Positions 10,841-49,513 of a stretch of DNA of 64,000 bases are shown here, piece after piece. The DNA is taken from contig JBPOIT010000011.1 in the NCBI GenBank assembly GCA_052034235.1, forward strand, positions 118,719-182,718, in the 5' to 3' direction. The notes under the pieces are model-generated. The model was not told the origin of the DNA and ran no database searches. It saw only the letters and a program-made list of their open reading frames with translations. Each line of letters begins with the position of its first letter. Positions within the stretch are counted from its first letter, which is position 1. Both the position numbers and the translations under genes were made by a program. The stretch is from Candidatus Levyibacteriota bacterium. Its GTDB lineage: Bacteria; Patescibacteriota; Microgenomatia; Levybacterales; UBA12049.

Positions 10841-10882
10841 TTAATGATTATAGCATTTTTTTAAAGTTGCAATGAAGGGATT

Positions 10883-11434: not shown

Positions 11435-11437
11435 AAA

Positions 11438-20081: not shown

Positions 20082-21644
20082 ATGATGCTTTTTACAAAAA
20101 AGAATGTATTTTTAGGACTTGTCGCAGTACTGGCGCTTAGTATCCCAATTACCGTCGGCATATTACAGCAGCAACAAGAAACTCGAGGAAGGGCTTCTGC
20201 TTCAACCTCTCTCGCTTTCACACCCACAACATCAACAACTGCCCCTATACAAAAGAAAATGGGAGAAACTATTTCACTCGATTTAATCGTCACCCCAAGT
20301 AACAATCTCGTTACCTTTGTGAAATTTGAACTAAAATATGACCCTACCAAACTTGAACCTGTGGGTACTGATCCGTTTACGCTCAACACGAGCGCTTTTG
20401 TTTCAAAAGACGGGCCAGTGATCACATCAGGCAGACTGATTGCTTCAGCTTCTGTCGGTTCAGATCCGACAAAAGCAATTCAAAAACCAACAAAAGTAGG
20501 GACCATTCTCTTTCGGGCTATTGGAGGAACGGGTAGTTCTCCGACGACGATTACCTTTGAGAATCTCACCCAAGCACTTTCTTCAGCGACAACAGATCAA
20601 GCTTCTGAAAATGTTATCTCAACAACATCCCCTGCGCATATCCTTATCGCAAATAATATCCAAGCATGCACAAGTAATAAATATAAAGCCGAAATGACAG
20701 CAGGACAGGAAGTCCCTACCAACACAAGTTCTGCTAGTGGAACGACAACACTTTCTCTCCTTGCTGAAAGCAAGGCAGATGCTACAACTACTGTCAAAAA
20801 TCTACAGCCTGGCGATGTAACTGGTATGTTCATCTATAGCCCTGCATCAGCTAGTGCTAAAGGCGCACAAAGAGTAACGCTTTATGCCACTGGGACATTT
20901 GCGAATCCTCATACAGCTAATGACGTTTTTATTCCTGAGGATGTACTGAATGATATTAATAGTGGTAATGCTTATGTTGGAATTACTACCAAACAATACG
21001 CAAATGGGGAGATTCGCGGAAAACTGACATGCGTCACAGGAGGTGGCAATGAAGAAACAAATCTTAATTTCGAACTTCTACTCCATGGCATCGGTTCAGC
21101 CGGAGATAATCCTAATCCAAGCGGGAGTTCTCTAAGCAATAAAAATCCATTACACCCTCAACGAAATCTTCAACTCGAGATATATGATGTTGATAACAAA
21201 CTTGTGACAAGTGTTTCTGGAGACCTTTCTCTTAATTACGAAGTTAACGGCGGAATCTTTAAAGGGTCATTGAGCCTTGGAACCAATTTCCAGGAAGGAA
21301 ATTACAATTTGAAAGTAAAATCAGACAGGTATCTTAAACGACGTGTCCCCGGCATTATTCAAATTAAACCAAAATCAGATACACGTGTTCCGAAAATTGA
21401 TTTAGTAGCGGGTGATATTAATAGTGATAATACGCTTAATGTTCTGGACTACAACGCACTTCTTGATTGTGGTTACGGCGAAATTGAACCACTCCCAATG
21501 GCAGATCCAAATGCAATTTTTAACAAAACAGAATGTCAGGCACATACACCTGCTGAGCTCATTGATCTTGATGATAACGGCATCATAAATGGACCTGATT
21601 ATAATCTGTTTATACGTGAACTTTCGGTTCAGAATGGTGACTAG
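20082..21644 (+). CDS. Surface protein with, in order, signal/TM, cohesin-like module, CHRD domain, beta-sandwich and dockerin-type double Ca-binding repeat
   Basis: The CHRD signatures are AGQEVP…YVGITTKQYANGEIRGKL. The dockerin-like segments are AGDINSDNTLNVLDYNALL and DLDDNGIINGPDYNLFIRE. The N-terminal module is shared with 25420, 27757 and 28932. Confidence 0.6.
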   Translation: MMLFTKKNVFLGLVAVLALSIPITVGILQQQQETRGRASASTSLAFTPTTSTTAPIQKKMGETISLDLIVTPSNNLVTFVKFELKYDPTKLEPVGTDPFTLNTSAFVSKDGPVITSGRLIASASVGSDPTKAIQKPTKVGTILFRAIGGTGSSPTTITFENLTQALSSATTDQASENVISTTSPAHILIANNIQACTSNKYKAEMTAGQEVPTNTSSASGTTTLSLLAESKADATTTVKNLQPGDVTGMFIYSPASASAKGAQRVTLYATGTFANPHTANDVFIPEDVLNDINSGNAYVGITTKQYANGEIRGKLTCVTGGGNEETNLNFELLLHGIGSAGDNPNPSGSSLSNKNPLHPQRNLQLEIYDVDNKLVTSVSGDLSLNYEVNGGIFKGSLSLGTNFQEGNYNLKVKSDRYLKRRVPGIIQIKPKSDTRVPKIDLVAGDINSDNTLNVLDYNALLDCGYGEIEPLPMADPNAIFNKTECQAHTPAELIDLDDNGIINGPDYNLFIRELSVQNGD

Positions 21645-21647
21645 TAT

Positions 21648-23624
21648 ATGAAATATTTCCAAAAAAGAAAAAAACTTATTCCCTTAGCTATTTTTATAGC
21701 CCTTTATCTCCTCGTTCTTGTGCCGCTTATCGTATTCAACTTGCAGCAGCGCCAAGATATTCGCAGCAAAGCACAGGTCGATCCAACACCTGGTGTGCAG
21801 CTTGCAGCAGTGTGCGGCAATGCATCTTCAGATATCGTCCTTGTGATTGATCGATCAACAAGTATGACCGGACAGAAATTCACTGACGCAAAGAATGCTG
21901 CAAAATTATTTGTCGATATTATCGATCAAGATAATAACAATTCCCGCATAAGCCTTGTGTCATATGCGGGGAACTCAACAATTAATACACCTATGACAAA
22001 TAACTTTACTTCTATTAAAACCGCGATCGACGGGTTACAACTTCAATCAGGAACTTGTATTCAATGTGCTGTTAAATCAGCAATTCAAACAATCGCAAAT
22101 AACCCTGGAGCAAACAAAAAAGTAGTTGTTTTGTTAACTGACGGACGTGCAAACCGTGTTGATGGCAATTCAACGAGCGAAACAGTCGCAGAACAAGCTA
22201 CATTAACGGCTGTGACAAACGGTCCAGCTATGCCCTACTTTACCATCGGCCTTGGATCTGACGTAAATACAAACCTTCTTCAAAATATAGCAGCAAAATT
22301 TGGAGCAAAGTACTACTTCCCTCCTACACCTGAGCATTTGAACGCAATTTATAAAGAGATCTCTGAAATTGTAGGCAAAGGTTCTGTCTCAGGGTTTGTC
22401 TTTGAAGATCTAAATGCAAACGGAGCGTTTGAAAGTACAGAGCCCAAACTACCAAATTGGCAGGTACAGGTCACACAACAAGGCACAGGGACAACGCAAA
22501 CTGTAACAAGTGATAACCTCGGTAACTATTATGCTGCCGGTCTTTGCGATGGATCACACCAAGTAAAACAAGTTGCCCAAACCGGTTGGAGACAGACATT
22601 GCCAACTGATGTTAACGGACATGTTATTACTGTGACCAATGCAAACGCGGTCATAGACAAGAACTTTGGCCAAACAAAAGCGACAAGATGTTCAGATAAG
22701 ATTGATAATGACAATAACGGATTTATAGATGAAAAAGATTCAACCTGTCACACTGATGGTAATCCAAATAATCCGAACTCATACGATCCTAACAAAGATG
22801 GCGAACGTGGTGGAAATACTTGTGCAGATTCAAAAGATAATAATGGGAACGGTTTAATTGATGGTGCAGATCCAGTATGTCATCCAGGTGGCGATATCAC
22901 AAAGCCTTGGGATCCAAACCTTCCAGAGGTTAATCCTACGCCTACGCCAACATTAACACCGACACCAACAAAAGTGCCTACTGGTACGCCAACACCAACT
23001 CCAACGAAAGTCCCAACGGGCACACCTACGCCAACACCAACTGCTGTTCCAACTTCAGTGCCAACACAAGGCTTGACGAGTTTTCAATTGACAGTTTTCC
23101 AGCACGGTATCGGATCAAGTGGTGATAATACAAATGCAGCAAGTTCGCTCAGTAATAAAAATCCTCTCAGAAAAACTGTCCCAGCAGAATTGCAATTATA
23201 TGATCTAAATAATAACCTGATCGGCGCGGGAACAGGCAAAGTGAATTATAACGAACAAACAGGCAATTACATCGGAACTATCAGTATTACACCAAATGTT
23301 TTTACAACTGGAAAATATACACTTAAGGTAAAAACTGAGGGACATTTGAGAAAACTTATGACCGGTATTCAAACAATTGTCGCCGGACAGCATAACACTT
23401 CCCTACCTGCAGTTTCACTGGTGACTGGAGATATCGACAATAATAATGCGCTGAGTATTCTTGATTACAATCTATTGCTTGACTGCTACAGTGATTTGAC
23501 TGTTGCATCAAATTGTTCTGATACCAAAAAGAAAACTTCATCAGATCTTAACGATGACGGTCCTGTTAACCAAATTGACTACAATCTCTTCTTAAGAGAA
23601 ATTGCAACGCAACCTGGAGAATAA
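21648..23624 (+). CDS. Surface protein with, in order, signal/TM, VWA domain, SdrD-B-like domain, two TSP3-like Cys-bracketed Ca-binding repeats, Pro/Thr linker, beta-sandwich and dockerin-like module
   Basis: Has MIDAS DRSTSM…LLTDGRAN, and Ca-binding repeats DKIDNDNNGFIDEKD and DSKDNNGNGLIDGAD. The linker is PTPTPTLTPTPTKVPTGTPTPTPT. The C-terminal module is homologous to those of 20082, 25420 and 27757. Confidence 0.6.
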   Translation: MKYFQKRKKLIPLAIFIALYLLVLVPLIVFNLQQRQDIRSKAQVDPTPGVQLAAVCGNASSDIVLVIDRSTSMTGQKFTDAKNAAKLFVDIIDQDNNNSRISLVSYAGNSTINTPMTNNFTSIKTAIDGLQLQSGTCIQCAVKSAIQTIANNPGANKKVVVLLTDGRANRVDGNSTSETVAEQATLTAVTNGPAMPYFTIGLGSDVNTNLLQNIAAKFGAKYYFPPTPEHLNAIYKEISEIVGKGSVSGFVFEDLNANGAFESTEPKLPNWQVQVTQQGTGTTQTVTSDNLGNYYAAGLCDGSHQVKQVAQTGWRQTLPTDVNGHVITVTNANAVIDKNFGQTKATRCSDKIDNDNNGFIDEKDSTCHTDGNPNNPNSYDPNKDGERGGNTCADSKDNNGNGLIDGADPVCHPGGDITKPWDPNLPEVNPTPTPTLTPTPTKVPTGTPTPTPTKVPTGTPTPTPTAVPTSVPTQGLTSFQLTVFQHGIGSSGDNTNAASSLSNKNPLRKTVPAELQLYDLNNNLIGAGTGKVNYNEQTGNYIGTISITPNVFTTGKYTLKVKTEGHLRKLMTGIQTIVAGQHNTSLPAVSLVTGDIDNNNALSILDYNLLLDCYSDLTVASNCSDTKKKTSSDLNDDGPVNQIDYNLFLREIATQPGE

Positions 23625-23636
23625 AACTTAACGAGT

Positions 23637-25352
23637 ATGAAAAAGGTGAAAAAAAGAACAACTCATCAAATGAAACAAATAAAAAAAATAAAAAATAAGG
23701 ACTCATTTCTAAAGCAAATGATTGGTTTTCGATGGCAAATTGCTGTCGTAGCGCTTTTTGCTATTGTCGCTTTTGTTGCAGTTTACTTCACTTTCCAAAC
23801 CAAAGCTGCAACGGCATGGCCACTTAAAGTGAGTCAAAATGGACGCTACCTCGTAGATCAAAATAATAAGCCATTCTTTTACACAGCAGATACCGCATGG
23901 ACGCTTGTAAACAAACTCACTGCTGCTTCTGCAAAAAAATTAATTGATGTACGTAAAGAGCAAGGATTTAACGCAATTCAGGCAAGTCTGAGCGGATTTG
24001 GAAGAACAATACCAGGCCCACAAGGAACTCCTTTCCAAAATGGTGATTTAACAAAACCCAACGAAGAATATTTTAAAGTAGTTGATGAAATTGTGAAATA
24101 CGCAGAATCGAAAGATATGGTGCTCGTGATGACACCATTTTGGCTCGGAGACAATGGCGGCAAATTTGGTGGAACATTGCCATCAGATGCAGAAATGCAA
24201 AGTTACGCTGCTTTTCTAGGGAACCGATATAAAAATTCTGGTAACATCATCTGGTTTGTCGGTGGAGACGATGCAGCAGACAGCAATGAAGCAGCAATAA
24301 AACTTTTGGGTAGCGCACTAAAAGCTGCTGATCCTAATCATCTTATAACTGCTCATAACGACGCTAAGACTTTCCAATATAAAAATGAATCTTGGTACAG
24401 TTTGTATGCATTCCAATGGAATGCCAATAGTCCGCCATACAGTTATAAAGATGTTGACGATGGCTATAACCAAACTCCGATAAAACCTGTTTTTAACATG
24501 GAGCCTGCGTATGATCCTTCTACGTGTTGTGGAACTGATAAGGATACGACACCACAAAAAAACAGACGAAGCGGCTGGTGGTCAATACTTTCTGGAGCTA
24601 TGGGTGTTGTTTATGGCGGACCACGAGAAGCTTGGAATGCAAGTGAACCATTAAATCTAGATGCTCTTAACAGGGTTCCAGCTACTCACACAGCAAACAT
24701 TCAAAAAATTCTTAGTGTTTATCCATGGGAGAAATTAGTTCCGGATAACAATAAGGATAGCTTTACCGTAGTAACTGGCGGCAGAGGGACATATGACAAT
24801 GATGATTTTGCAACAGCTGCACGCGCAAGCGATGGCAGTCTCATTGTTGCGTATATACCTACTGGAAGAACATTGACTGTAGACATGTCCAAACTATCAG
24901 GTCCAGCAACTGCATCCTGGATAGATCCAACAAATGCTGCAAAAACTGATGCAGGTGCCAATTTGCCAAATAGCGGAACAAAAGATTTTGCTCCACCAAG
25001 TGCCAACGCAGGTGGCGATAGTGACTTTGTCCTTATTCTCACAACAGGTACCACTACCATATCTACAGTCCCAAATGTATCTCAACCGATAACAAGTCCG
25101 CCATATGTATGTCTTGGTCCATGTGTTCCTTCTGTATCACCGGGAGTTTCTATAGTACCAAGTAACGCAGCACCTGTTCCGTCTGAAGATCCACTCGATC
25201 CCGATAACCCGACAGATCCAGATATTAACCCTTCAACACAGCCTAATCCAATAGATGATGGCGACAACAATCAAAAACCGAAAGGCCTCTTTGCACTCAT
25301 CCTGGAGTTCTTCCGAATACTACTCGAATTTCTTCTAAGCCTTTTTAGATAA
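23637..25352 (+). CDS. Putative glycoside hydrolase (DUF4038/GH140-like TIM-barrel) with N-terminal TM and a Pro-rich C-terminal tail
   Basis: The segment WPLKVSQNGRYLVDQNNKPFFYTADTAWTL…EQGFNAIQ… resembles DUF4038-type hydrolases. The C-terminus is Pro/Asp-rich and then hydrophobic. Confidence 0.5.
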   Translation: MKKVKKRTTHQMKQIKKIKNKDSFLKQMIGFRWQIAVVALFAIVAFVAVYFTFQTKAATAWPLKVSQNGRYLVDQNNKPFFYTADTAWTLVNKLTAASAKKLIDVRKEQGFNAIQASLSGFGRTIPGPQGTPFQNGDLTKPNEEYFKVVDEIVKYAESKDMVLVMTPFWLGDNGGKFGGTLPSDAEMQSYAAFLGNRYKNSGNIIWFVGGDDAADSNEAAIKLLGSALKAADPNHLITAHNDAKTFQYKNESWYSLYAFQWNANSPPYSYKDVDDGYNQTPIKPVFNMEPAYDPSTCCGTDKDTTPQKNRRSGWWSILSGAMGVVYGGPREAWNASEPLNLDALNRVPATHTANIQKILSVYPWEKLVPDNNKDSFTVVTGGRGTYDNDDFATAARASDGSLIVAYIPTGRTLTVDMSKLSGPATASWIDPTNAAKTDAGANLPNSGTKDFAPPSANAGGDSDFVLILTTGTTTISTVPNVSQPITSPPYVCLGPCVPSVSPGVSIVPSNAAPVPSEDPLDPDNPTDPDINPSTQPNPIDDGDNNQKPKGLFALILEFFRILLEFLLSLFR

Positions 25353-25419
25353 ATAGTTTAGGAAAACTCATCTTGACAGTCTAAGCCTAAATTCATTATG
25401 CTTACAGTGATACTGTCTT

Positions 25420-27753
25420 ATGTCTTTTTTTACAAAAAAACGATTAGTGCTTGGTGGATTATTTTTACTCGCTATCGTTCTGCCGGTTACTATCCTTTTC
25501 TTTCAAAATCAACAAAATATAAGATCCCGTGCTGATAAAACTGTCGTGCTATCTTATGAACCAGGATCTACGGCAGGCGCTCCCCTTCAAATCCCAGCAG
25601 GAAGTACATTCTCGCTTGATGTCTTTGTTGATCCTGGAGCAAGTGCAGTATCGTATGTCAAAGCAGAACTTGTGTATGACACTGGGAAATTTGAAGCGGC
25701 TGGCGGGTTTATTCCTAACCAGGAAGCATTCTCTCAAGTTATAGAATCAACCGATGCTCCTGGGAAAGTAACTACCACACTTTCTGTAGGATCTGATACA
25801 TCCAAAGCACTTAAGGCTAAAACAAAAATTGGCACAATCTCATTGCGGGCATTATCAACTGTCGCGACCAACTCAGAAGGCACGATTAACTTTGGTGCAG
25901 GTTCACAAGCACTCGCTATAAGTGCCAACAGCTCATTTAACGAAAATGTTATAGCAAATACAGTTCCCGCAGTTATTCGTTTCAATCAACCTTCAAATGT
26001 CTGTGGTAATGCATCAAGCGATACGATGCTTGTTATCGACAGATCTGGAAGTATGGCTGATAAAGAAGGTACGAGTGGTACCAAAATCTCAAACGCAAAA
26101 ACTGCAGCCAGTAACTTTATCGATATCGTTGCAAGAGACGCAGCCAATAAATTCGGCCTCGTTTCATTCGCTACTACCGCTAGTTTGAACAGTCCAATTG
26201 CGAGTGATGCAAACAGCGTAAAATCACAAATAAATTCACTTTCAACCTCATCATATACCTGTATTGAATGCGGGATACTCAAGGCAAATCAGGAAATAGC
26301 CGCAAAGAAACGGGCTGGAACTAAAAATATTGTCATCCTCTTAACTGATGGTCGTGCAAATGTTGTTGAAGGAAATACTGCAACTGCAGCAGAAGCAACA
26401 GCAGAACTTAAAGCGACAAATGCTGCCATAAGCGGATATAATGCCAACGGAACAATCTTTTTTACGATAGGCCTCGGGAAAGATGTTAATTCAGAATTCC
26501 TTACCAAACTTGCAGAAAAAACGGGAGGTCAATACTACTACAGCCCAACAACAGATCAGCTCAACGGCATTTATAATCAAATCTCTCAAATAATCGCCAA
26601 AGGCAGTGTCGCGGGGAACGTCTTTAATGATACCAATGCCAATGGGACACTTGATCAAGGCGAAGAAAACCTCCCAGGTGCAATTGTGCAGCTTCACTCC
26701 TCTACCCAATCACCTCAATCAGTGACATCTGATAGCACAGGGAATTTCGCAATTACTAATCTCTGTGACGGAAACTATACCTTAAAGCAAGTTCTCCAGT
26801 CAGGCTGGAAACAGACTTTCCCGGCAAACAGCGGCGACCATACAATTGCAATCGCAAATGGCAGTGCAATAACTAACAAGAATTTTGGCAACAATAAAGG
26901 TACACGCTGCTCTGATGGGATTGATAACGACGGCAATGGTTTTATCGACACAAAGGATTCTACCTGTCATACAGATGGCGACCCAACGAATCCTAATTCC
27001 TATGATCCTAACAAAGATGGCGAACGTGGTGGAAATACTTGTGCAGACTCAATTGATAACAACAATGACGGCAAGATAGATGGTGCGGATCCAGTTTGTC
27101 ACACGGACGGCGATCCTACAAAACCTTGGGATCCAAACTTGCCTGAGAATGCCAAACCAACACCAACCCCGACTGCGGCACCAACAATTCCTCCACCTGC
27201 AAATGCTGCTCAGTTCAATTTGGATGTCATACTGCACGGTATAGGATCTGGCGGAGACAATGCAAACCCAACTGCAAATAGTTTCAGTAATAAAACGCCA
27301 CTCAACCCTATACAACAAGCATCTATCAGAGTCTTTAACGCAAGTAATCAATTGTTTGCAACAGCTTCAGGCGTTGTCACATACAGTAGTGCAAGCGGCA
27401 GCTATAAAGGTGTGTTAACAGCTGATAAAGCGATCAGTGCAGGACCATATATTATCCGTGTAACTATTGATAAACATCTTACACGCCTTGTCCCGGGAAT
27501 CCAGTCACTTAAAGAAAATGTTGACACATCGATTTCTTCAATTCAAGTTGTAGCTGGAGATATAACCCGCGATAACAGACTCGATATCCGTGATTATAAC
27601 AATATTCTCGATTGTTATAGTGATTTATTGCCGCCTGTTTCTTGTGATGATCCGCAAAAGAAAAAAGATACTGATATTAATGACGACGGCAATGTTGGAC
27701 AATTTGATTACAACTTGTTCCTGCGTGAACTTTCTACACAACCGGGTGAATAA
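25420..27753 (+). CDS. Surface protein with, in order, signal/TM, cohesin-like module, VWA, SdrD-B-like domain, TSP3-like Ca repeats, Pro/Thr linker, beta-sandwich and dockerin-like module
   Basis: Carries the combined architecture of 20082 and 21648: MIDAS DRSGSM…LLTDGRAN, DGIDNDGNGFIDTKD, DSIDNNNDGKIDGAD, and a C-terminal DINDDGNVGQFDYNLFLRE. Confidence 0.6.
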   Translation: MSFFTKKRLVLGGLFLLAIVLPVTILFFQNQQNIRSRADKTVVLSYEPGSTAGAPLQIPAGSTFSLDVFVDPGASAVSYVKAELVYDTGKFEAAGGFIPNQEAFSQVIESTDAPGKVTTTLSVGSDTSKALKAKTKIGTISLRALSTVATNSEGTINFGAGSQALAISANSSFNENVIANTVPAVIRFNQPSNVCGNASSDTMLVIDRSGSMADKEGTSGTKISNAKTAASNFIDIVARDAANKFGLVSFATTASLNSPIASDANSVKSQINSLSTSSYTCIECGILKANQEIAAKKRAGTKNIVILLTDGRANVVEGNTATAAEATAELKATNAAISGYNANGTIFFTIGLGKDVNSEFLTKLAEKTGGQYYYSPTTDQLNGIYNQISQIIAKGSVAGNVFNDTNANGTLDQGEENLPGAIVQLHSSTQSPQSVTSDSTGNFAITNLCDGNYTLKQVLQSGWKQTFPANSGDHTIAIANGSAITNKNFGNNKGTRCSDGIDNDGNGFIDTKDSTCHTDGDPTNPNSYDPNKDGERGGNTCADSIDNNNDGKIDGADPVCHTDGDPTKPWDPNLPENAKPTPTPTAAPTIPPPANAAQFNLDVILHGIGSGGDNANPTANSFSNKTPLNPIQQASIRVFNASNQLFATASGVVTYSSASGSYKGVLTADKAISAGPYIIRVTIDKHLTRLVPGIQSLKENVDTSISSIQVVAGDITRDNRLDIRDYNNILDCYSDLLPPVSCDDPQKKKDTDINDDGNVGQFDYNLFLRELSTQPGE

Positions 27754-27756
27754 CGT

Positions 27757-28881
27757 ATGTCAAAAAAAACGCTTCTCGTGATCGGTCTTGTAGTCGTTGC
27801 ACTCGTAGGTATACCTGCTGCGCTGCTTGTCTCTCAACAGACACAAAATATCCGTTCAAAAGCATCTGGATCAACAACGCTTGCTATTACTCCTGGCACA
27901 ACTGAATCAACACCGTTACAAAAAGGTATTGGTGAAACGGCTTCATTTGAGGTTTGGGTAAAGCCAGGAGATAACATGCCTTCGATGATCAAAATGGAGA
28001 TTAATTATGATGCTACGTACTTTGAAAATACGCCAAATACCTTTACGGTAAATAATGAGGCCTTTCCCGTGACCGTTGAGGGTCCTGTTGTAACTGATGG
28101 AAAAATACTTGTTGCTGTATCGATTGGCTCAGATAGTACAAAAGCAATTCAAAAAGAAACCAAAGTCGGCACACTCACTCTGAAAACAAAAGCAGTCACT
28201 TCTTCCCCCACGAAAATCTCATTGGGTACAATTTCTGAAGTTCTTTCAGTCGCGACAACCGATCAGGCGGCAGAAAACGTGCTTGCGACAACACTCCCCG
28301 CGTTTGTCATCGTTGCAGAAGCCCCGACACCGACAGCAACAACACTCACTTTCACAGCTTTCCTTCATGGCATTGGCAAAAGCGGTGATAATGCCAATCC
28401 AAGCGCTCACAGCATGAGTAATAAAAATCCCCTTCACGAATCACGGCAAATCTTTATTGAGGTTATTAACGATCAAAATATCGTGACAGCTACAAAAGCA
28501 GGAATCCTTACTTATAATAAAGACAATGGTAACTTTACCGGCACTTTTGATTTTGGACAATCATTACCTGAAGGCGACTATATCATAAAATTAAAAGAGC
28601 CAACTCATCTTCGTAAACTTGTCGACGGAATCATATATATTAAACCCCAGCAGAGCAATCAAATTCCGGAGGTCGCCTTTGTTGCAGGCGATGTGAATAA
28701 CGATAATACACTCAATATACTTGATTATAATATCATTTCCGGCTGTTACAGTGATTTACTTCCCGCAGTTGCCTGTGACGATCTCAAAAAAGAAATCTCA
28801 GATTTAAATGACGACGGGAAAGTAAACCAATACGACTATAACCTTTTCCTCAGAGAAATCATTGTCCAATATGGCGGATAA
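27757..28881 (+). CDS. Surface protein with signal/TM, cohesin-like module, beta-sandwich and dockerin-like module
   Basis: The N-terminus is homologous to 20082 (…GSDSTKAIQKETKVGTLTL…ATTDQAAENV…). The C-terminus has AGDVNNDNTLNILDYNII and DLNDDGKVNQYDYNLFLREI. Confidence 0.6.
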   Translation: MSKKTLLVIGLVVVALVGIPAALLVSQQTQNIRSKASGSTTLAITPGTTESTPLQKGIGETASFEVWVKPGDNMPSMIKMEINYDATYFENTPNTFTVNNEAFPVTVEGPVVTDGKILVAVSIGSDSTKAIQKETKVGTLTLKTKAVTSSPTKISLGTISEVLSVATTDQAAENVLATTLPAFVIVAEAPTPTATTLTFTAFLHGIGKSGDNANPSAHSMSNKNPLHESRQIFIEVINDQNIVTATKAGILTYNKDNGNFTGTFDFGQSLPEGDYIIKLKEPTHLRKLVDGIIYIKPQQSNQIPEVAFVAGDVNNDNTLNILDYNIISGCYSDLLPAVACDDLKKEISDLNDDGKVNQYDYNLFLREIIVQYGG

Positions 28882-35791: not shown

Positions 35792-36587
35792 ATCGCAGTA
35801 AGAACTATTCTGCTCCCCACTGGACGTGCGGATTTCCCGCATCCAGCGAGTCTCTTATAAAAGCCTCTTTGAGAAGTTTTATCTTCTCAATGCCAGAAAT
35901 GGTTAAATGATGCTTTTGAAGCATGAGATTTGCTACGATACAAAATAGAGCAAAACTCTGCTTTTTCTTTGCTTGTAGAGGATATTTTGTAAAGAATGGA
36001 ATAATTTTTGTTGTAATATCTTTTAAGTTTGAGACCTTATATTTGTAATGCGGTCTCCACTTTTTATACCTCTCATATTTGAGATGGTAGATATTGCCAC
36101 AAGCAAACGATTCTTTAATCCTTTCTAAAATTTCCAAATCATCTTCTCGTAATTCTATTTCGAAGATGAGTCTTACTTCAAGCAAACGATTGTTTTTGTG
36201 TTTGTTAAAACTAACACTAAAACAACCTTCACCATCAACTAATCCAACAATATAATAAGGATTTAATTTTGAGTTCATCCCTTCCTCTAAAATCATTATA
36301 CATAATTCTAAAGTACTATGGAATCTGCTGACTTCCTATAGCCGATTATAGTTCTGATGCATATAGGATCTCCTTGGGTCACTTAAAAGACAATTTCAAA
36401 CATCCTAAGAAGCTTTTCTAGTCTCTTCCTCTTAGTACACGTAAGAGTCGAGAAGCTTTGTTTATCTTAGGCTGCTCTTCGTTTCATCGAACCCTTCAGA
36501 CTTTCCCTTACGGGAGAAGTCCTGTTCTTCAACTACAAGAATGGATTTTCACCATTTTGTCGGTTAAGCTGCCAAGCGCATTTAATT
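35792..36587 (-). mobile_element. Intron inserted in the 16S rRNA decoding-region helix (near E. coli position ~1395), probably group I
   Basis: The sequence between the TTGTACA and CACCGCCCGTC halves of the conserved 16S motif has no rRNA similarity and contains a homing-endonuclease ORF. Confidence 0.75.
35805..36296 (-). CDS. LAGLIDADG-family homing endonuclease encoded within the 16S intron
   Basis: 163 aa with an IVGLVDGEGCFSV motif (a single LAGLIDADG motif is visible). Confidence 0.8.
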   Translation of the reverse strand: MILEEGMNSKLNPYYIVGLVDGEGCFSVSFNKHKNNRLLEVRLIFEIELREDDLEILERIKESFACGNIYHLKYERYKKWRPHYKYKVSNLKDITTKIIPFFTKYPLQAKKKQSFALFCIVANLMLQKHHLTISGIEKIKLLKEAFIRDSLDAGNPHVQWGAE

Positions 36588-36885
36588 TGTACAAGACCCG
36601 AGAACGTATTCACAGCGGCCTACTGATCCGCGATTACTACTGATTCCTCCTTCATGCAGTCGGGTTGCAGACTGCTATCTGAACTGAGGCGAAATTTCTG
36701 AGATTTGCTTGCCGTCGCCGGCTTGCTGCTCTTTGTTCTTCGCCATTGTAGGGTGTGTGTAACCCAGGGCATAAGGGCCGTGCTGACTTGACGTCTTCCC
36801 CTCCTTCCTTCCCGATATGATCGGGACCGTCCGAAATGAATATGTAACATTTCGCGGGGGTTGCGCTCGTTTCCCCACTTAAGGG

Positions 36886-36929
<44 letters not shown>

Positions 36930-37038
36930 GTACCATCCTTACGGATCTACCAATGTTTCCAAAGGTATTAAACGGTATCATGTCAAGCCCTGGTAAGGTT
37001 TTTCGCTTTGTCTCGAATTAAACCACACGCTCCACCAG

Positions 37039-37070
<32 letters not shown>

Positions 37071-37870
37071 TAACCTTGCGGTCGTACTCCCCAGGCGGTT
37101 CGCTTAATGCGTTAGCTTGAACCTCTGCAGACAAGTCTGCAAAAGTTAGCGAACATCGTTTACGGCTAGGACTACACAGGTATCTAATCTGTTTCGCTAC
37201 CCTAGCTTTCGTGCCTCAGCGTCAGGAAAAACCCAGGAGCCTGCCTTCGCCCTTGGTGTTCCAGTTAATATCAACGCATTTCACTGCTACACTAACTGTT
37301 CCAGCTCCCCGATCAATCCTCAATTCCGTGAGTATCACCACCAGTCCCAAGGTTAAGCCTTGGTCTTTAAGTAATGACTTTACGGAACGCCTACGCACAC
37401 TTTACGCCCAATGAATCCGGATAACGCTTGCCTCCTACGTATTACCGAGACTTCTGGCACGTAGTTAGTAGAGGCTTATTCTCCAAGCTGTGAAAGGCTT
37501 GGCAAAAGGAGTTTACAACCCGAAGGCCTTCATCCTCCACGCGGCGTCGCTGCGTCAGACTTTCGTCCATTGCGCAATATTCCTGGTTGCTGCCATCCGT
37601 AGATGTATTGCCCGTGTCTAAGTGCAATTGTGGCTGATCGACCTCTCAGTCCAGCTACCCGTCATCGCCTTGGTAAGCCTTTACCTTACCAACTAGCTGA
37701 TGGGACGCAGGCTCCTCTCTCGGCGGACCGTTAAGTCCTTTACCCTTGCGGGACTATAGTGAATTACCCGACCTTTCGGCCGGCTATGCACTACCCAGAG
37801 GTAGATTCCTACGCGTTACTCACCCGTCTGCCACTTGAATATTACTATTCCCGTTCGACTTGCATGCCTA

Positions 37871-37913
<43 letters not shown>

Positions 37914-38100
37914 AAAAAAAATTTGGGTTTCAGATTTCTTTATTTGTATAAGGAATAATCTGAAAAAAATTCCTACCACATCTTGATTGTCAAACGCATG
38001 ATTATCCAAATCACACGCTTGAACTGTTGCGTGAATAAGTGTGTTGTGTATTTCGTTTTTAAAGAGCAATAGTATTTATTGTAGAGCGTTTTGAGATAAA

Positions 38101-43584: not shown

Positions 43585-44747
43585 TTATCTTGCACCATCA
43601 AATACTATTATTTCCCTTCTTGTTGCCTTTTGTTCTAAATAATAGTTTCTGTTAGCTTGCTCTGTAACAGCTCTCGTAACATCAAAAATAGGTTGTATAG
43701 AAACATGTGTTTCATCAGTAACTCTACCATTATGTCCCAACACGTCCACAGCACTTGCAAACATCGCTTGTACTTCAACAAAGTTTTGTCCATCAGGCAA
43801 CCCCGTATCAAGATATCCACTTGAGCCACCTCGTACTACAAAGTTGCCTTGACCTATTTCAACAAGATTAGGCACTAAACCATTTTTTGCAATAACGGGC
43901 TCACCACCGTCAATAGATACTGAAAGATATGGACTAGTAGCAATTCCAGGTTCTGCTACTAATTCGCTAACTGTTATGTTTGACTTCAAATTATCAGTAC
44001 CATCTATCGCCACAATCGCACCTTTGCGTGGATCTGGAATAGCCTCCACATCAAGTGAACCAGAGATATGATCTGTCCCTCCACTCAAAACATCAAAAGC
44101 AACCTCAATAAAAGGGCCTCTTGAAAGGAATTGATCAACACGATGACCATCCAGTACATGCCCCTCTACAATATGTGGTTTAACATATGAAAGATTACTG
44201 CCCCTATCAACTGTAAATAGATGCGTGCCATTATCAAGGCGTGCATATACTAACTCGTTAGAATTATCTTTACCAGTCCAACTTCTATTATCCCCAGGAC
44301 TATATCGTGAATTGGTATTAACATACCCAACACGAGTACGTCCCTTATGATCTTTATTAACAAGCGCTTGCCATGTCTGATAACCAGTATTTTCTGTTGC
44401 GAACTTATCATTATGTCCTGAAATTACATGCGCAACTTCTAATCCATATTCTTCTGCCACTGCTGTCAAATTGAGGTCTACTTCAACATTTGCAAAATCA
44501 TCTCGCCCATGTCCACCTCCAAAATCTGTTATCCGGACAATATCAAATGGTCCCTTTACAAGTGCACGATCAGGCACCAACAAGCCTGTTTTTCTATCAG
44601 GCCTAAAGCTACTCGTGTCAATATGCGGAGCCTTACCATTTGCAGTAGGGAGAGCTCCTTCCACAAGAAAAATGCCACTCGGAGTAGCAGCTGTTGGGAT
44701 TGGTAAACCGTTTCTTGAAATTTGTTCTAGACTTGGTCGTGCCATAT
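43585..44747 (-). CDS. Hypothetical 388-aa protein under SAM-riboswitch control, no family recognised
   Basis: The start is taken at MARPSLEQ (44747), with GGGAGG 16 nt upstream. The ORF-track N-terminal extension to 44895 overlaps the riboswitch and is rejected. Motifs include ITDFGGGHGRDD, VISGHNDKF and SGGTDHISGSLD. Confidence 0.5.
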
Positions 44748-44749
44748 AA

Positions 44750-44918
44750 AACAAAAAAACCTCCCGGAAAGGAGGTTTATTACAAAAAAATTGTTTTCCA
44801 GATTTAATCTGGACTAATCCTCCCCCTACGGGATTGGGTTTGGCACCGTGGTATTTACTCGGTTGCCGGATGGGTCTTCGGAGCCAATTCTCCATTCGCC
44901 ATCACTCTTGATTAGCAA
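44750..44918 (-). promoter_or_regulatory. SAM-I (S-box) riboswitch with aptamer at 44811..44916 and intrinsic terminator at 44750..44776
   Basis: The minus-strand aptamer is GCUAAUCAAGAGUGAUGGCGAAUGGAGAAUUGGCUCCGAAGACCCAUCCGGCAACCGAGUAAAUACCACGGUGCCAAACCCAAUCCCGUAGGGGGAGGAUUAGUC. It contains the S-box blocks AUCAAGAG, GGAG, CCGGCAACC and GGUGCCAA, and P1 pairs CUAAUC with GAUUAG. The terminator is CCUCCU-uucc-GGGAGG followed by U7, and its 5' arm can alternatively pair with the aptamer's GGGGGAGG. Confidence 0.75.
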
Positions 44919-44962
44919 TATAATAGCATAGAGCACATATGATGACAAGAGGTTTTTTGTGA

Positions 44963-46030
44963 TTAGTGCGGGGTCATGCACGCACCTGTTGACTGATTCC
45001 AAATTGGTTTCGGATCGACAGTGAGATTTGCTGGTGGATCAATAATAATTTGTGTGTCTCCACTTGGAGTGATTGAGTTTTCGCATTCCACAACCGCCTG
45101 TGCGTCTGAAGGATTTCCAACATAAAGATCAACCATTGTCACGACGCCGCAACCTTTAGGCGCTGTCCATGAAACAGCGCATTCGTCCTCTTTGATGAAA
45201 TATTTTTGAACACGCGGCACATAAATAATTTGTCCAACTTTGTATGCTCCAGCACCCGCTGGAGATGCAAATGTTAATGGATCTGCATGTGTTCCTGTAC
45301 CGCCTGCTTCCTGATGGATAACGGGATTTGCGATTGCTTTTGAACCTTTTGGATCATTGTCGTAGGCACCATAAAAGGTAATTTTCACATTGGCAGTTGT
45401 GCCAGCGCCACCTGATGGGACAACTGAAAGCACTGTCGAAGGTACCGGTGGTGCTACTGAAGTTGATGTACTTGGCACAGGTGCTGTTGAAGGATCAGGA
45501 CATGGAACTTCTTCTTCCTGCTCTTGTTCTTCATCTGGTGTTGTATCTTCTTCATTTGGAACGTTGCTTGGGGCTGGGACAGTATTTTCGTCGGGCAGTT
45601 TGATCGTTCCTTCCCCCAATAATTTATTGATAAGTTCAATAAGCCATTCAAGTATCTGCTTCATAAATTTACTTACTTCCCCATCGTGAATTTTATGTTT
45701 GCTTTTGTGTTTACTTTTCTTGCTATGTGCAGTTGACGCCCCTCCCGTAACACATGGATCTGCTGGAGTTTGACTCATACTTGTTGAAGGAGTTTGCGCT
45801 GTGGGTGCAGGAGCACTACTTGTTACCGGTGATACTGCAACAGATGTGCAGGACGGACACGGTGCTAATGGATAAAAGCTTGGTTTTATCACAGATGATG
45901 CTTCTGTTCTCACGTCCTGCTCTTTTTGGACGAGGAAAATAGTTAGAGGCATTAACATCGCGAGCATGACCGCATATGCAACAAGACTAAGTTGCCTCAC
46001 ATGTTCCCTTTTATGATTGAATTCGTTCAT
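44963..46030 (-). CDS. Secreted protein with Pro/Ser/Thr-rich linkers, a basic KSKHK/amphipathic module and a C-terminal 3D/double-psi-beta-barrel-like domain
   Basis: Signal/TM N-terminus. The C-terminus (…ITFYGAYDNDPKGS…THADPLTFASPAGAGAYKVGQIIYVPRV…) resembles MltA-type 3D domains. It shares an internal module with gene 46074. Confidence 0.45.
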   Translation of the reverse strand: MNEFNHKREHVRQLSLVAYAVMLAMLMPLTIFLVQKEQDVRTEASSVIKPSFYPLAPCPSCTSVAVSPVTSSAPAPTAQTPSTSMSQTPADPCVTGGASTAHSKKSKHKSKHKIHDGEVSKFMKQILEWLIELINKLLGEGTIKLPDENTVPAPSNVPNEEDTTPDEEQEQEEEVPCPDPSTAPVPSTSTSVAPPVPSTVLSVVPSGGAGTTANVKITFYGAYDNDPKGSKAIANPVIHQEAGGTGTHADPLTFASPAGAGAYKVGQIIYVPRVQKYFIKEDECAVSWTAPKGCGVVTMVDLYVGNPSDAQAVVECENSITPSGDTQIIIDPPANLTVDPKPIWNQSTGACMTPH

Positions 46031-46073: not shown

Positions 46074-47879
46074 TTAGTCACAAGTACCTGGATCGTCAGG
46101 GTAGTTTGGATTAATGTTATGGACGCATGCATTGGTACAACATTTCCGTGCACCTGTTGCATCACATTTTTGACCGCTTGGAATACATGCAAATACTTGC
46201 GTAGGCGCTGCACTTGGAGCAACACTAAACGGCTGCGTAATTGAAGGCGCGACAGAGACTGGCGTTGATGGAGCAATGATAGGTGCCACTGACGGTGAGA
46301 CGACCGGAACAGATGGATTTATTGTAGGGACAGGTGCACTTGTTGGAGCACTTGTCGGCGCGCATGGATCAGGTACTGTGGATGGAGTTGGCTGCGGGTT
46401 TGGAAGAGGTGTTGTCCCACCACCGATAAGTCGCAGAAGCAGATTTAAAAGTTCAATAAGAAACCTGAGCAGTGCGTCCATAAATTTACTCACACCACCG
46501 CTTTTCTGTTTATGTTTGCTTTTCTTTTTCTTATTGTGAGCAATCGACGCTCCTTCGGCTACGCAAGGTTGCGTTGATACACTTGGAGTCGTAGTTCGAC
46601 TTGAAGGTTGAGGGTTTGTACTTGCGGAACTCGGAATTGGTGAAGTTACGCCACAGCTGGGACAAGGAGCAATAACGCCGTAGGTTGGTGTTATGAAAGC
46701 AGATGTCGGTGCTGAATTAGCGGCAAAGTTGACTCGAATAATTTTATCATCCTCCGCTTGAGGGGTTCCCCTGCCGTCTCTATTTGAAGTTGTGATGTAT
46801 AACTGATTATCAGGACCAACGATTACTTCACGAATACGGCCAAACTGCCCCTTGAAGTGCTGATTAACGATACTGGCTGTTGTGCCTTGCACTTTTGCTT
46901 CATACAGAGCTTGTCCTTTGAGTCCTCCAAAAAAGATCGAATCATTAAAGAAAGCTGTACCCGCAGGTGCCCACGTTGTTGTTGCATCATTGCCGCTATG
47001 AACAAGCGGCGTTACCATACCTGTTTGCTGAGCATCACCTTCGATAGTTGGCCAGCCATAATTTTTGCCTGCTTCGATAAGATTAAGTTCATCAGACCTT
47101 GATGGCGAAGAATTACCATGCTCTGTTGCATAAAATGTCGAACCGTTCCAAGTAAGGCCCTGTGGGTTACGATTACCATATGAATACGTTCTATTATTAA
47201 ATGGATTTCCAGGTGCAGGTTGACCTGTATCAGTTACTCTCAATATTTTCCCGGCCAAAGAGTTTGTGTCTTGTGCAGATGATGGATTTCCTGCATCACC
47301 TGTTGTTATATATAAAAAGCCATCCGGTCCAAATTTAATTCGACCCCCATCATGATTTGTACCTCCTGGTATCGCATCTACAATAGTTGTCGGGCTTGTC
47401 ATTTGATTATTGGAAAAGACATACCGAACAACACGATTCAATGTGTTTCCGCTTGTTTCCTGATATGTGTAATACAGGTATACAAAATTATTTGAAGCAA
47501 ATTGCGGATGAAGCGCGATACCAAGCAGACCTCCTTCACCGGTAGCTTTCACCCCGGTTATTGCAACTATATCTGTCGTTTGTCCATTTGCCGGAGCAAT
47601 GAGTTTTACCGTACCTGGCCTTTCAGTAACCAACATATTCCCATCCGGCAAAAAAGCTATCGCCCAAGGAATGTTTAAATTCTTGGCAATTATTCTTGTT
47701 GCCGGTGTACCAGACGGAAGATTCTGCGCTTCAGTTTTCAGAGATTGATTGGTATTTATATTGGCTGTAAATATAACTAAAACTATCAGTGGAAGAACAA
47801 GAAGTAACAGTAAGAAGAGATGAGATATGTGATGTCTGTGCATATTTTTATTGTACGTACGCACAACAACTTTTTGCAA
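46074..47879 (-). CDS. Secreted soluble quinoprotein glucose/sorbosone dehydrogenase-like beta-propeller protein with a Cys-rich C-terminal extension
   Basis: GSDH-family patterns (…NIPWAIAFLPDGNMLVTERPG…, …NHDGGRIKFGPDGFLYITTGD…, …GKNYGWP…) are followed by the module shared with gene 44963 and a Cys-rich tail. Confidence 0.55.
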   Translation of the reverse strand: MQKVVVRTYNKNMHRHHISHLFLLLLLVLPLIVLVIFTANINTNQSLKTEAQNLPSGTPATRIIAKNLNIPWAIAFLPDGNMLVTERPGTVKLIAPANGQTTDIVAITGVKATGEGGLLGIALHPQFASNNFVYLYYTYQETSGNTLNRVVRYVFSNNQMTSPTTIVDAIPGGTNHDGGRIKFGPDGFLYITTGDAGNPSSAQDTNSLAGKILRVTDTGQPAPGNPFNNRTYSYGNRNPQGLTWNGSTFYATEHGNSSPSRSDELNLIEAGKNYGWPTIEGDAQQTGMVTPLVHSGNDATTTWAPAGTAFFNDSIFFGGLKGQALYEAKVQGTTASIVNQHFKGQFGRIREVIVGPDNQLYITTSNRDGRGTPQAEDDKIIRVNFAANSAPTSAFITPTYGVIAPCPSCGVTSPIPSSASTNPQPSSRTTTPSVSTQPCVAEGASIAHNKKKKSKHKQKSGGVSKFMDALLRFLIELLNLLLRLIGGGTTPLPNPQPTPSTVPDPCAPTSAPTSAPVPTINPSVPVVSPSVAPIIAPSTPVSVAPSITQPFSVAPSAAPTQVFACIPSGQKCDATGARKCCTNACVHNINPNYPDDPGTCD

Positions 47880-47917
47880 GAGGTAGAAAGACGCTGTGAG
47901 CTGATCGGTTTAAAAAA

Positions 47918-49513
47918 ATGCTAAAAAATGATATAGTGGTCAGCAATAAGCCTCGCGCTCTTTTTGAAATGAAAACTTTTTTCACTTACCTTTTAATATT
48001 TCTCGCATTCTTTGGAATGCTTGATGCGGGATATTTAACATACGAACATTATCAAAACGAAATTCCACCATGCAGTGTAAGTTTTCTCGCTAGCGATTGC
48101 GGCGCGGTATTAACCAGTGAATATGCAATTGTTTTTGGCATTCCACTTGCACTGATTGGGCTTGCACATTATTACGTCTCAACAATCGCCCATATGTATG
48201 CAGCGATAGGCAAAAAAAGAAAGGCACGTTATCTCACGATTATACTCGCCTATGCTGGCCTTATAAGCTCAATTTATTTTGTATATTTGCAGCTAATCGT
48301 TATCCAATCAATTTGTTTATTCTGCATGGGTTCTGCACTGATTAGCACACTTATCTTTATCTTTGTCCAATTCGCATTTCAAAAAGAACAAAAATTACTT
48401 TTTTCGTTGGTATTTGGTTATTTCTACCGAAATGTTGCAAAGCCAATATTATTCAAACATGATCCTGAAATCGTGCATGAAAGGATTACTTCATCGAGTG
48501 AAATGTTTGGTAAATTCCCACCGATTAAATGGTTTGCAAAACTGTTTTTTCACTACAAAAATAACGCCTTGAAGCAAACTGTTGCCGGAATCACTTTTCA
48601 AAATCCCGTGGGCCTTGCAGCGGGGTTTGACTATGACGCAAAACTGACACAAATTCTACCAAGCGCTGGATTCGGATTTCAAGCAGTTGGAACAATTACC
48701 AATTTTTCATACGAAGGAAATAAACGCCCAATGCTCGGACGACTCCCCAAATCAAAATCACTTATGGTAAATAAAGGTTACAAAAATCTAGGCGCTTTGA
48801 AAACTGCAGAAAAATTAAACACACTTCACTTTGCCTATCCTGTGGGAATCAGCATCGGTGCGACTAATTTTCAAAAAAAGATAACCTTAAAAGACGCTAT
48901 CAACGATGTTGTTGACGCTTTTAAGGTTTTTGAAAAATCACCTGTGCGGCACGCATATTATGAACTAAATATCAGTTGCCCCAATTTATATACCGATATT
49001 AGTTTTTATCCGCCTAAGAATTTACGAGCACTACTTGAAGCTGTTGATAAACTTAAAATTAAAAAACCAATTTTTGTCAAAATGCCAATTGATCACACTG
49101 ACAAAGAAACCCAAGACATGCTCAAGGTGATTGCGGATCATTCACCGGTAGGAGTTATTTTTGGCAATCTCCAAACGAATAGAAAAGATGCTTCACTTGT
49201 TCAGAGCGAAGTAAAACAATTTAGTGTCGGTAATTTCAGCGGTAAACCTACATTTGTTCGTTCAAATGAATTAATTGCACTTACATATAAACAGTATAAA
49301 AAGCGATTTGTAATCATAGGCTGCGGGGGCATATTTAGTGCTGAGGATGCATATAAAAAAATTACATTGGGTGCAACACTTGTACAGCTTATTACTGGAA
49401 TGATTTTTGTGGGTCCGCAGCTAATTTCAGACATCAATATAAAACTTGTCGATCTTATAAAAAAGGACGGATTCACCCACATCTCTGAAGCAATTGGTTC
49501 AAAAAACACCTAA
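47918..49513 (+). CDS. pyrD: Fusion of a vitamin-K-epoxide-reductase-like (VKOR) membrane domain with class 2 dihydroorotate dehydrogenase
   Basis: The N-terminal 150 aa have a loop Cys pair (CSVSFLASDC), SEYAIVFGIPLALIG and a TM CxxC (ICLFCM). The rest aligns with quinone-dependent PyrD (GITFQNPVGLAAGFD, ELNISCPN, IIGCGGIFSAEDAYKKITLGATLVQLITGMIFVGPQLI). Confidence 0.7.
   Translation: MLKNDIVVSNKPRALFEMKTFFTYLLIFLAFFGMLDAGYLTYEHYQNEIPPCSVSFLASDCGAVLTSEYAIVFGIPLALIGLAHYYVSTIAHMYAAIGKKRKARYLTIILAYAGLISSIYFVYLQLIVIQSICLFCMGSALISTLIFIFVQFAFQKEQKLLFSLVFGYFYRNVAKPILFKHDPEIVHERITSSSEMFGKFPPIKWFAKLFFHYKNNALKQTVAGITFQNPVGLAAGFDYDAKLTQILPSAGFGFQAVGTITNFSYEGNKRPMLGRLPKSKSLMVNKGYKNLGALKTAEKLNTLHFAYPVGISIGATNFQKKITLKDAINDVVDAFKVFEKSPVRHAYYELNISCPNLYTDISFYPPKNLRALLEAVDKLKIKKPIFVKMPIDHTDKETQDMLKVIADHSPVGVIFGNLQTNRKDASLVQSEVKQFSVGNFSGKPTFVRSNELIALTYKQYKKRFVIIGCGGIFSAEDAYKKITLGATLVQLITGMIFVGPQLISDINIKLVDLIKKDGFTHISEAIGSKNT

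Follow-up and report, generated by a model that had tools for sequence, protein, structure and literature searches.

Introduction

VKOR/DsbB enzymes carry electrons from thiols to quinone, and class 2 dihydroorotate dehydrogenase (DHODH; PyrD) carries them from dihydroorotate to flavin mononucleotide (FMN) and on to quinone. Here, we describe a single gene in which the two families are joined. It lies in a 64-kb stretch of DNA from a Candidatus Levyibacteriota bacterium (contig JBPOIT010000011.1), the whole of which we call the window and in which positions are counted from the first letter, and it encodes a VKOR domain followed directly by a class-2-shaped DHODH. Both families, and the Cys-for-Ser variant described below, have precedents; the architecture itself sits unremarked in public protein collections. 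It is real, common in the candidate phyla radiation (CPR; Patescibacteria) and apparently undescribed. Among openly licensed PMC papers and bioRxiv we found no literature on a VKOR–DHODH fusion or on a prokaryotic clade of Cys-type, class-2-like DHODHs.

The described bacterial VKORs, those of Synechococcus (a VKOR-Trx protein; 3kp9/4nv2), M. tuberculosis and Actinomyces oris (VKOR-MdbA), have the same four-helix core, Cys pairs, Ser and outward topology as are found or predicted in the window protein. Known VKOR fusions add a fifth transmembrane (TM) helix and an extracytoplasmic Trx or DsbA partner, whereas in the window fusion TM4 leads inward to a cytoplasmic flavoenzyme and no thiol–disulfide protein is attached. 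A CPR VKOR beside an MdbA-like family has been noted (PMC6744442).

The second half of the protein resembles the class 2 PyrD enzymes of E. coli (1f76), H. pylori (6b8s) and M. tuberculosis (8ofw) and human DHODH in having the same alpha1–alpha2 helices, the equivalents of E. coli His19 and Arg102, and the Asn and Lys residues of the FMN/orotate site. It differs from them in using Cys at the position of the base, in the replacement of Thr178 and Thr247 by Leu, of Tyr318 by Ile and of Lys66 by Tyr with an accompanying Lys286, and in the 150 residues of VKOR that precede alpha1. Mitochondrial class 2 DHODH likewise carries a TM segment directly upstream of alpha1–alpha2, so that the tunnel is held at the bilayer, but that anchor is a single inert helix whereas the anchor of the window protein is a complete, catalytically conserved enzyme.

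A Cys base is familiar from class 1A. The fumarate-dependent PyrDa of L. lactis has the same ELN(I/L)SCPN loop, but class 1A enzymes are soluble, have no N-terminal helical domain and show only weak overall similarity to the window protein. The only precedent that we found for a Cys base on the class 2 scaffold is the fungal group of Cys-type class-II enzymes (SjUra9, DbUra9 and ArUra9), which come from organisms of anoxic niches (PMC8520639). These are eukaryotic, of independent origin and rare (six of about 334 fungal sequences; PMC8520639), and none is fused to a VKOR, whereas in the CPR the Cys is the rule for a very large clade. SjUra9 and DbUra9 retain the N-terminal quinone residues; one fungal Cys-type enzyme uses free FMN or flavin adenine dinucleotide (FAD), and another has been linked to fumarate through fumarase mutations (PMC8520639).

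Architecture of the gene product

The gene and the features at its start are as follows.

47918..49513, + strand: VKOR–DHODH fusion open reading frame (ORF), 531 amino acids plus stop, one uninterrupted frame
47969..49513, + strand: probable true coding region from Met18, 514 amino acids, judged from homologue starts and low model confidence at residues 1–11
47909..47937, + strand: promoter-like site TTTAAA-17-TATAGT with TG, 32 nucleotides upstream of Met18, a consensus match only

A preliminary description of the window, made from its letters, had proposed that a VKOR-type domain is covalently fused to a quinone-type PyrD. This holds: PF07884 and PF01180 are both matched within the single ORF, and a 531-residue protein in a public collection (P0001) is 100% identical to its product. 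AlphaFold2 models the whole two-domain chain with a mean predicted local distance difference test score (pLDDT) of 88.9 and a predicted template-modelling score (pTM) of 0.87.

Met18 (47969) is probably the true start codon. Most full-length homologues begin at an equivalent MK(T/K/R), and residues 1–11 are modelled as disordered, with pLDDT below 50. The promoter-like site falls inside the longer ORF, which is a hint in the same direction and nothing stronger; such sites are not enriched over shuffled sequences (eight found against 6.6 expected).

The VKOR domain

47990..48364, + strand: VKOR domain, residues 25–149, four TM helices, N-in/C-in (Pfam, hydropathy, positive-inside rule, AlphaFold2)
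48071..48118, + strand: outward loop with the shuttle pair C52-x8-C61 and the conserved Ser67, invariant in 38 of 38 homologues
48314..48325, + strand: active-site CxxC, C133-L-F-C136, at the outer end of TM4, invariant in 38 of 38 and aligned with the CMYC of Synechococcus VKOR

Residues 25–149 match PF07884 with E = 1.3e-24, scoring 87.3 bits against a cut-off of 27.5 and covering profile positions 2–132 of 134. When the VKOR part alone is compared with the solved Synechococcus VKOR (4nv2/3kp9) the match has E = 2e-6, with the loop Cys residues, the Ser motif and the CxxC all aligned. Scored with the NCBIfam 'VKOR family protein' equivalog models, the domain stays below their cut-off (53 against 120). 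The assignment as VKOR, hallmarks and TM CxxC included, is as first proposed, except that the loop pair had been given as C-x6-C and is C52-x8-C61 here; across the VKOR–DHODH family this spacing ranges from x6 to x12. Cys52, Cys61, Ser67, Cys133 and Cys136 (the last two in CLFC) are invariant in all 38 aligned homologues. Six positions separate Cys61 from Ser67, the same spacing as between Cys51 and Ser57 of the human enzyme.

The Lys and Arg residues cluster at the N-terminus, in the TM2–TM3 loop (GKKRKAR) and after TM4. None occurs in the Cys loop, which has four Asp or Glu residues. The topology predicted from this distribution is N-in/C-in, which puts the two Cys pairs on the outer face and the DHODH in the cytoplasm, and hydropathy and the positive-inside rule together bear out the suggestion that the VKOR cysteines face outward. 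The helices of the VKOR part in the AlphaFold2 model (11–45, 68–98, 101–129 and 134–153) agree with hydropathy.

The linker and the quinone-tunnel helices

48380..48514, + strand: helical linker into class 2 DHODH alpha1 (155–178), then alpha2 (183–199), the quinone-tunnel domain with His187 (AlphaFold2, alignment)

The VKOR domain had been thought to replace the short N-terminal membrane-association helix of class 2 PyrD. Instead, alpha1–alpha2 is retained directly after TM4. In the model TM4 (134–153) runs, after a break of one residue, into a 24-residue helix (155–178) that corresponds to alpha1. Class 2 models and PDB chains begin to align at about residues 169–175 (the equivalent of E. 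coli 2–32). Our landmark alignment places residues 169–199 on E. coli 1–31 and His187 on His19; of its references (E. coli, human and L. lactis), the E. coli numbering reproduces the known residues and the human numbering is off by one.

The distance from the CxxC to Tyr170 of alpha1 is 34 residues in 38 of 38 homologues. Of 175 fusions, most have a distance of 51 residues from the CxxC to the tunnel His, and a Paceibacterota-like subgroup has 58. The fixed length of the linker and the high pTM of the whole-chain model suggest that the two domains are rigidly arranged.

The DHODH domain

48569..49450, + strand: DHO_dh TIM-barrel catalytic domain, residues 218–511, predicted to be cytoplasmic (PF01180, E = 4.3e-48)
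48632..48634, + strand: Tyr239, replacing the class 2 active-site Lys (E. coli Lys66, 'GxDK') and paired with the new Lys286
48740..48742, + strand: Arg275, the class 2 quinone-site Arg (E. coli Arg102), kept in 99 of 99 Cys-type representatives
48773-48775, + strand: Lys286, a new Lys paired with Tyr239 by co-occurrence
48968..48985, + strand: catalytic loop N351-I-S-C354-P-N356 (YELNISCPN), with Cys354 at the position of the catalytic base

In overall sequence and fold the domain belongs with class 2. It passes the class 2 models TIGR01036 (225 bits against a cut-off of 200) and NF003652 (279 against 267) and fails the class 1 model TIGR01037 (68 against 270). The best PDB sequence match is a class 2 PyrD (E = 3e-43), whereas class 1A entries give E-values of about 1e-8 to 1e-10. 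The top Foldseek matches are class 2 enzymes, 6b8s and 8ofw each with a template-modelling score of 0.94, within a range of 0.86–0.94 for DHODH structures.

The active site tells a different story. The loop had been read as carrying an SCPN active-site Ser, but the base position has Cys354, in the manner of class 1 enzymes; in alignments this residue corresponds to E. coli Ser175 (the second Ser of NISSPN) and to L. lactis Cys130. The Ser base and Thr relay neighbours of class 2 are both missing: Leu occupies the positions of Thr178 and Thr247, and Ile that of Tyr318 (E. coli numbering). Of the class 1 features, the Cys base in an ELNxSCPN loop is present, and solubility without an N-terminal helical domain and a class 1 overall sequence are not. 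Judged by its residues, the domain is class-2-shaped and not a canonical class 2 enzyme.

The loss of the active-site Lys is matched by a gain. Tyr239 is accompanied by Lys286 in 28 of 28 representatives, the subclade to which the window protein belongs, while Lys286 occurs without Tyr239 in only two of 71. This correlation indicates a relocated residue and not a lost function, and the compensating Lys286 suggests that ordinary dihydroorotate/orotate chemistry is preserved. Asn351, Cys354, Asn356, Lys388 and Asn417, which include the FMN/orotate Asn and Lys residues, are invariant in the 38 fusions. As the signature residues of the VKOR and of the DHODH are invariant among these proteins at 54–74% identity, both halves of the fusion are, by this measure, under purifying selection.

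Distribution of the fusion and of the Cys-type enzymes

A search of 5.8 billion proteins (E <= 1e-10) gave 4,745 matches. All of the 120 best homologous clusters carry PF07884 and PF01180, in chains of about 494–544 amino acids, and the architecture is found in independent clusters from NCBI, JGI, ENA and Logan. Those with a named source are from Levybacteria and Roizmanbacteria, and their only annotation is 'quinone-dependent dihydroorotate dehydrogenase', an automated label that conceals the VKOR domain as well as the change in the active site. Among species-representative genomes a scan found at least 531 related loci, and the counts of loci out of 80 given below refer to the best 80 of these. 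Nearly all of the 80 are from Patescibacteria (Roizman-, Woese-, Gottesman- and Levybacteria, Paceibacterota and Saccharibacteria). In 46 the genes are fused, in two they are split but adjacent and in 32, one of them truncated, there is no VKOR in the locus; unfused DHODH genes start directly at alpha1. A survey of the distribution had been recommended at the outset, and the fusion holds across hundreds of CPR genomes.

These data bear on the possibility that an artefact has joined two separate genes. Split versions of both genes do exist in some genomes (L031 and L057, described below). Against a frameshift, a mis-assembly or a chimeric contig stand the continuous ORF, the identical public protein, the more than 120 independent clusters of the same architecture, the 46 fused loci and the invariant linker. 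We regard this explanation as refuted for practical purposes.

The Cys is not confined to the fusions. N[IV]SCPN is present in 80 of the 80 related loci. When 1.84 billion representatives were searched exhaustively, N.SCPN was present in 122 of the top 150; only nine had N.SSPN, and these appeared at or below about 37% identity. By this motif the Cys characterizes a large clade of class-2-like enzymes, with or without the fusion, for which the rule that Cys denotes class 1 and Ser class 2 fails. Within the clade the equivalent of His19 is kept in 98 of 99 members and that of Arg102 in 99 of 99, while Thr178 and Thr247 are mostly replaced and Tyr318 is mostly Ile.

As to a single origin of the fusion, a neighbour-joining tree has about ten changes between the fused and unfused states, but its internal branches are short, and either multiple losses or multiple gains would fit.

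Several entries in the collections deserve comment. Many third-party-annotation metagenome-assembled genomes labelled 'uncultured Gammaproteobacteria' or 'Pseudomonadales' (L002, L004, L008, L011–L013 and others) carry the CPR-type gene at 50–57% identity; since the sequences group with those of the CPR, these labels look like placeholders or mis-assignments. P0175, a Cys-type class-2-shaped DHODH of 358 amino acids, was deposited as from an 'uncultured archaeon', which hints either that the clade reaches (DPANN?) archaea or that the bin is misassigned. Other architectures in the clade (P0139, P0161, P0188 and P0256) include a DHODH with a C-terminal cytidylyltransferase-like domain and N-terminal extensions of 130–340 residues without a Pfam match.

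Gene linkage

The closest stand-alone VKORs (40–54% identity) are also from Patescibacteria. Two of them, at 41–44% identity, overlap an upstream gene of the DsbA family, a classical oxidative-folding pair, and this pairing indicates that the lineage is of the DsbA-reoxidizing type.

Where VKOR and DHODH are separate they can still be near each other. In L031 (Woesebacteria GW2011_GWC1_42_9, 9220..11569) a DsbA-like gene, a VKOR gene, tRNA-Gly(tcc) and a DHODH gene follow one another on one strand; the DsbA-like gene overlaps the start of the VKOR gene and the tRNA gene occupies the place that the fusion linker has elsewhere. The order is reversed in L057, in which an unfused DHODH gene is followed 8 bp downstream by a gene for a 140-residue VKOR. 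In L081, a complete Woesebacteria genome, VKOR and DHODH genes lie 3 kb apart on the same strand, and in L079 a DsbA-like gene adjoins an unfused DHODH gene. A profile hidden Markov model search of six-frame ORFs for divergent VKOR genes near unfused DHODH genes found only those of L031 and L057.

Electron transfer and the role of the fusion

The preliminary description took the fusion to couple dihydroorotate oxidation to periplasmic disulfide formation. As written this is chemically incoherent. Both domains are electron donors to quinone, which makes them parallel donors and not a donor–acceptor pair, and real coupling between them, although possible, would need one of the two to run against its known direction. 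That direction is established for both families, in the case of VKOR with the enzymes of Mycobacterium, Synechococcus and Actinomyces (PMC6744442).

The reading that we favour, with somewhat less than even confidence, is of a bifunctional protein with two parallel quinone reductases that share an anchor and one lipophilic acceptor. On this view a CPR bacterium of the Microgenomates type has a genuinely bifunctional protein in its inner membrane. The VKOR part, by homology, would act as a thiol oxidase, re-oxidizing a secreted DsbA- or MdbA-like protein and handing two electrons from its CxxC to membrane quinone. TM4 would lead directly into the two amphipathic quinone-tunnel helices and so to the cytoplasmic FMN barrel, which would oxidize dihydroorotate to orotate with Cys354 as the base. 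The fusion would provide a permanent membrane anchor for the DHODH and would keep both quinone sites in one rigid unit, at fixed stoichiometry, in an organism from a group not known to make quinones. We infer the direction of electron flow as well as the identity of the acceptor, a quinone that would serve both domains in common. Support comes from the scores of both domains far above family thresholds, the invariant signature residues, the predicted topology, the confident whole-chain model with TM4 running on into alpha1, the retention of His19 and Arg102, the correlation of Tyr239 with Lys286, the fixed linker, the pairing of the closest stand-alone VKORs with DsbA and the recurrent linkage of VKOR and DHODH when they are unfused.

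A number of observations weigh against this reading. Patescibacteria have no genome with a full electron-transport chain (PMC7507113), and a survey of soil CPR genomes found no genes for making quinones (PMC8407418), which leaves two reducers of the same quinone without an evident sink. The two quinone sites would, by homology, lie in opposite leaflets. The fungal class-II enzymes with a Cys base serve anaerobic, respiration-independent pyrimidine synthesis and partly use non-quinone acceptors (PMC8520639). In 32 of the 80 loci an unfused DHODH has no VKOR within +-10 kb, as judged by profile search of six-frame ORFs, and fused and unfused DHODHs are interspersed in the tree; together these indicate that the DHODH needs no VKOR in cis. 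A column-by-column comparison of fused with unfused DHODH domains gave weak signals only (mutual information <= 0.45), confounded by phylogeny. One protein of the same clade, P0147, has an N-terminal PAP2 membrane domain in place of the VKOR, and plain anchoring may be the selected trait. An obligatory coupling is also disfavoured by the neighbourhoods: when the ORFs within 6 kb of 81 loci were clustered, no family occurred in more than 11 loci, and neither pyr genes nor quinone genes nor DsbA appeared as a general neighbour.

A rival reading is that the fusion supplies an anchor and nothing else, which we consider rather unlikely. The VKOR would then be an ordinary DsbA re-oxidase that tethers the DHODH, whose electrons would pass to a soluble or non-quinone acceptor such as fumarate, free flavin or O2. 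There would be no shared acceptor and no functional interaction, and the fusion would reflect genome streamlining and co-expression. The fungal enzymes that work without respiration (PMC8520639), the PAP2–DHODH protein, the many unfused relatives with no VKOR nearby and the failure of the column comparison to reveal fusion-specific residues all suit it. So does the plain TM anchor that precedes alpha1–alpha2 in eukaryotic class 2 DHODHs. What a purely anchoring role leaves unaccounted for is the conservation of the tunnel helices, with their His19 and Arg102 equivalents, in 98–99% of the clade. The recurrent partner, moreover, is no arbitrary membrane protein but a VKOR, which is also found split, reordered or nearby, and both the rigid linker length and the high inter-domain confidence of the model argue for more than a tether.

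The missing sink can be approached from another side by supposing that a bound quinone connects the two domains in series. Electrons would pass either outward, by a reversed VKOR, or inward, by way of FMN and Cys354 to an enoate such as fumarate, and the protein would be a self-contained transmembrane redox module. We think series wiring of either kind improbable. If true, it would explain how two 'respiration-dependent' enzymes run without a respiratory chain or quinone synthesis, and it would represent a new minimal redox chain linking nucleotide synthesis with extracytoplasmic thiol chemistry.

In the outward direction, electrons would go from dihydroorotate to FMN, to a quinone between the domains, to the CxxC, to the loop Cys pair and finally to extracytoplasmic disulfides, with no need of a respiratory chain. 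This is distinctly unlikely, given that every characterized VKOR or DsbB transfers electrons from thiol to quinone and that the stand-alone VKORs nearest in sequence come with DsbA, in the manner of oxidative-folding systems, a function that reduction of DsbA would oppose. The thermodynamics cut both ways: the overall reaction is downhill, from about -258 mV for orotate/dihydroorotate to about -120 mV for DsbA-type disulfides, but the step from quinol to disulfide is uphill for menaquinone (-74 mV). The absence from the CPR of any chain that would re-oxidize quinol, and the association of the Cys-type enzyme with respiration-independent function, speak for the reversal; the DsbA–VKOR–DHODH gene linkage and the rigid geometry of the fusion are consistent with it. 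Unfused DHODHs without a nearby VKOR would need another sink in any case.

In the inward direction the DHODH would serve as the terminal reductase of oxidative folding, with electrons passing from DsbA to VKOR, to quinol, to FMN and then to a soluble enoate, either fumarate or orotate. Cys354 would be the proton donor, as in class 1A, and the protein would be a self-contained stand-in for the anaerobic DsbB–menaquinone–fumarate reductase system of E. coli. Class 1A enzymes do use a Cys at this site to reduce fumarate, and the proposal would explain both a working DsbA–VKOR pair in CPR bacteria that have no electron-transport chain and the linkage of the DsbA, VKOR and DHODH genes. Transfer from quinol to FMN would be strongly uphill, however, if the FMN potential resembles that of known enzymes (-242 to -330 mV; cited in PMC8520639). 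The exchange of Lys66 for Tyr with a compensating Lys points to ordinary dihydroorotate/orotate chemistry, nor is there evidence that these organisms have a supply of fumarate. We judge this direction very unlikely.

As regards parallel quinone reduction, the reading we prefer, the wider question is how the quinol is re-oxidized. The CPR form a very large radiation of bacteria without electron-transport chains and with no known synthesis of quinones, yet they keep a DsbA–VKOR disulfide system and a class-2-shaped DHODH, both of which textbook accounts link to the quinone pool of a respiring cell. An adaptation for electron donation in an organism without a conventional quinone pool, the alternative offered in the preliminary description, would fit what has been published on the group. 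A handle on the question of re-oxidation is offered, in one small expressible protein, by the fusion together with its split and reordered variants and the Ser-to-Cys change found throughout the clade.

Other features of the window

The genes around the fusion gene have housekeeping roles unrelated to it (a GSDH-family dehydrogenase, PBP2, MreCD, nicotinamidase, an NCS1 permease, NrtR and TopA), and no second VKOR or DsbA homologue was found in the window. The divergent gene at 46074..47879 (- strand) encodes a GSDH-family (glucose/sorbosone dehydrogenase) domain with a long Pro/Ser/Thr-rich tail and a Cys-rich C-terminus, and its product is likely to be exported and to contain disulfide bonds. 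Other loci do not have this gene as a conserved neighbour. The remaining features of note are the following.

2..1144, - strand: Trx-like plus polytopic membrane-domain gene, cut by the window edge, with WGSGCPHC (a DsbA-type CPHC) in a secreted Trx-like part and 'GFNPCAMW' in the membrane domain
35805..36296, - strand: LAGLIDADG homing-endonuclease ORF, downstream of the 16S rRNA gene
36278..36354, - strand: group-II-intron D1–D4 match, immediately downstream of the 16S rRNA gene
36540..37919, - strand: bacterial 16S rRNA gene, the full Rfam model (1–1533) in only 1,380 nucleotides
43585..44895, - strand: 436-residue ORF, overlapped at its 5' end by the riboswitch, no Pfam or NCBIfam match
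44781..44919, - strand: SAM-I/IV (S-adenosylmethionine) riboswitch, 45.8 bits against a gathering score of 41.1

The gene at the edge of the window had been described as a Trx–CcdA-type oxidoreductase. A gene with Trx-like and membrane parts is indeed present, but no CcdA or DsbD model matches its product, which gives weak glutaredoxin, DsbE and TrbB matches only. From its motifs it could be an extracytoplasmic thiol-redox partner, encoded 47 kb from the VKOR–DHODH gene.

No 23S rRNA gene follows the 16S rRNA gene within the window, and this arrangement is typical of CPR rRNA loci. The ORF overlapped by the riboswitch probably starts further downstream than 44895 and, from its position, would be a SAM-regulated gene.

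Finally, at least six predicted secreted proteins (20082..28881, + strand; 44963..46030 and 46074..47879, - strand) begin with a TM helix, after which comes a Q-rich motif of the type 'QQxQ(N/D)IRS(K/R)A', for example LVSQQTQNIRSKAS and FFQNQQNIRSRAD. The motif may act as a signal for sorting or cleavage that is specific to the lineage. Two of these proteins also have a 'PCPSC' motif in common.

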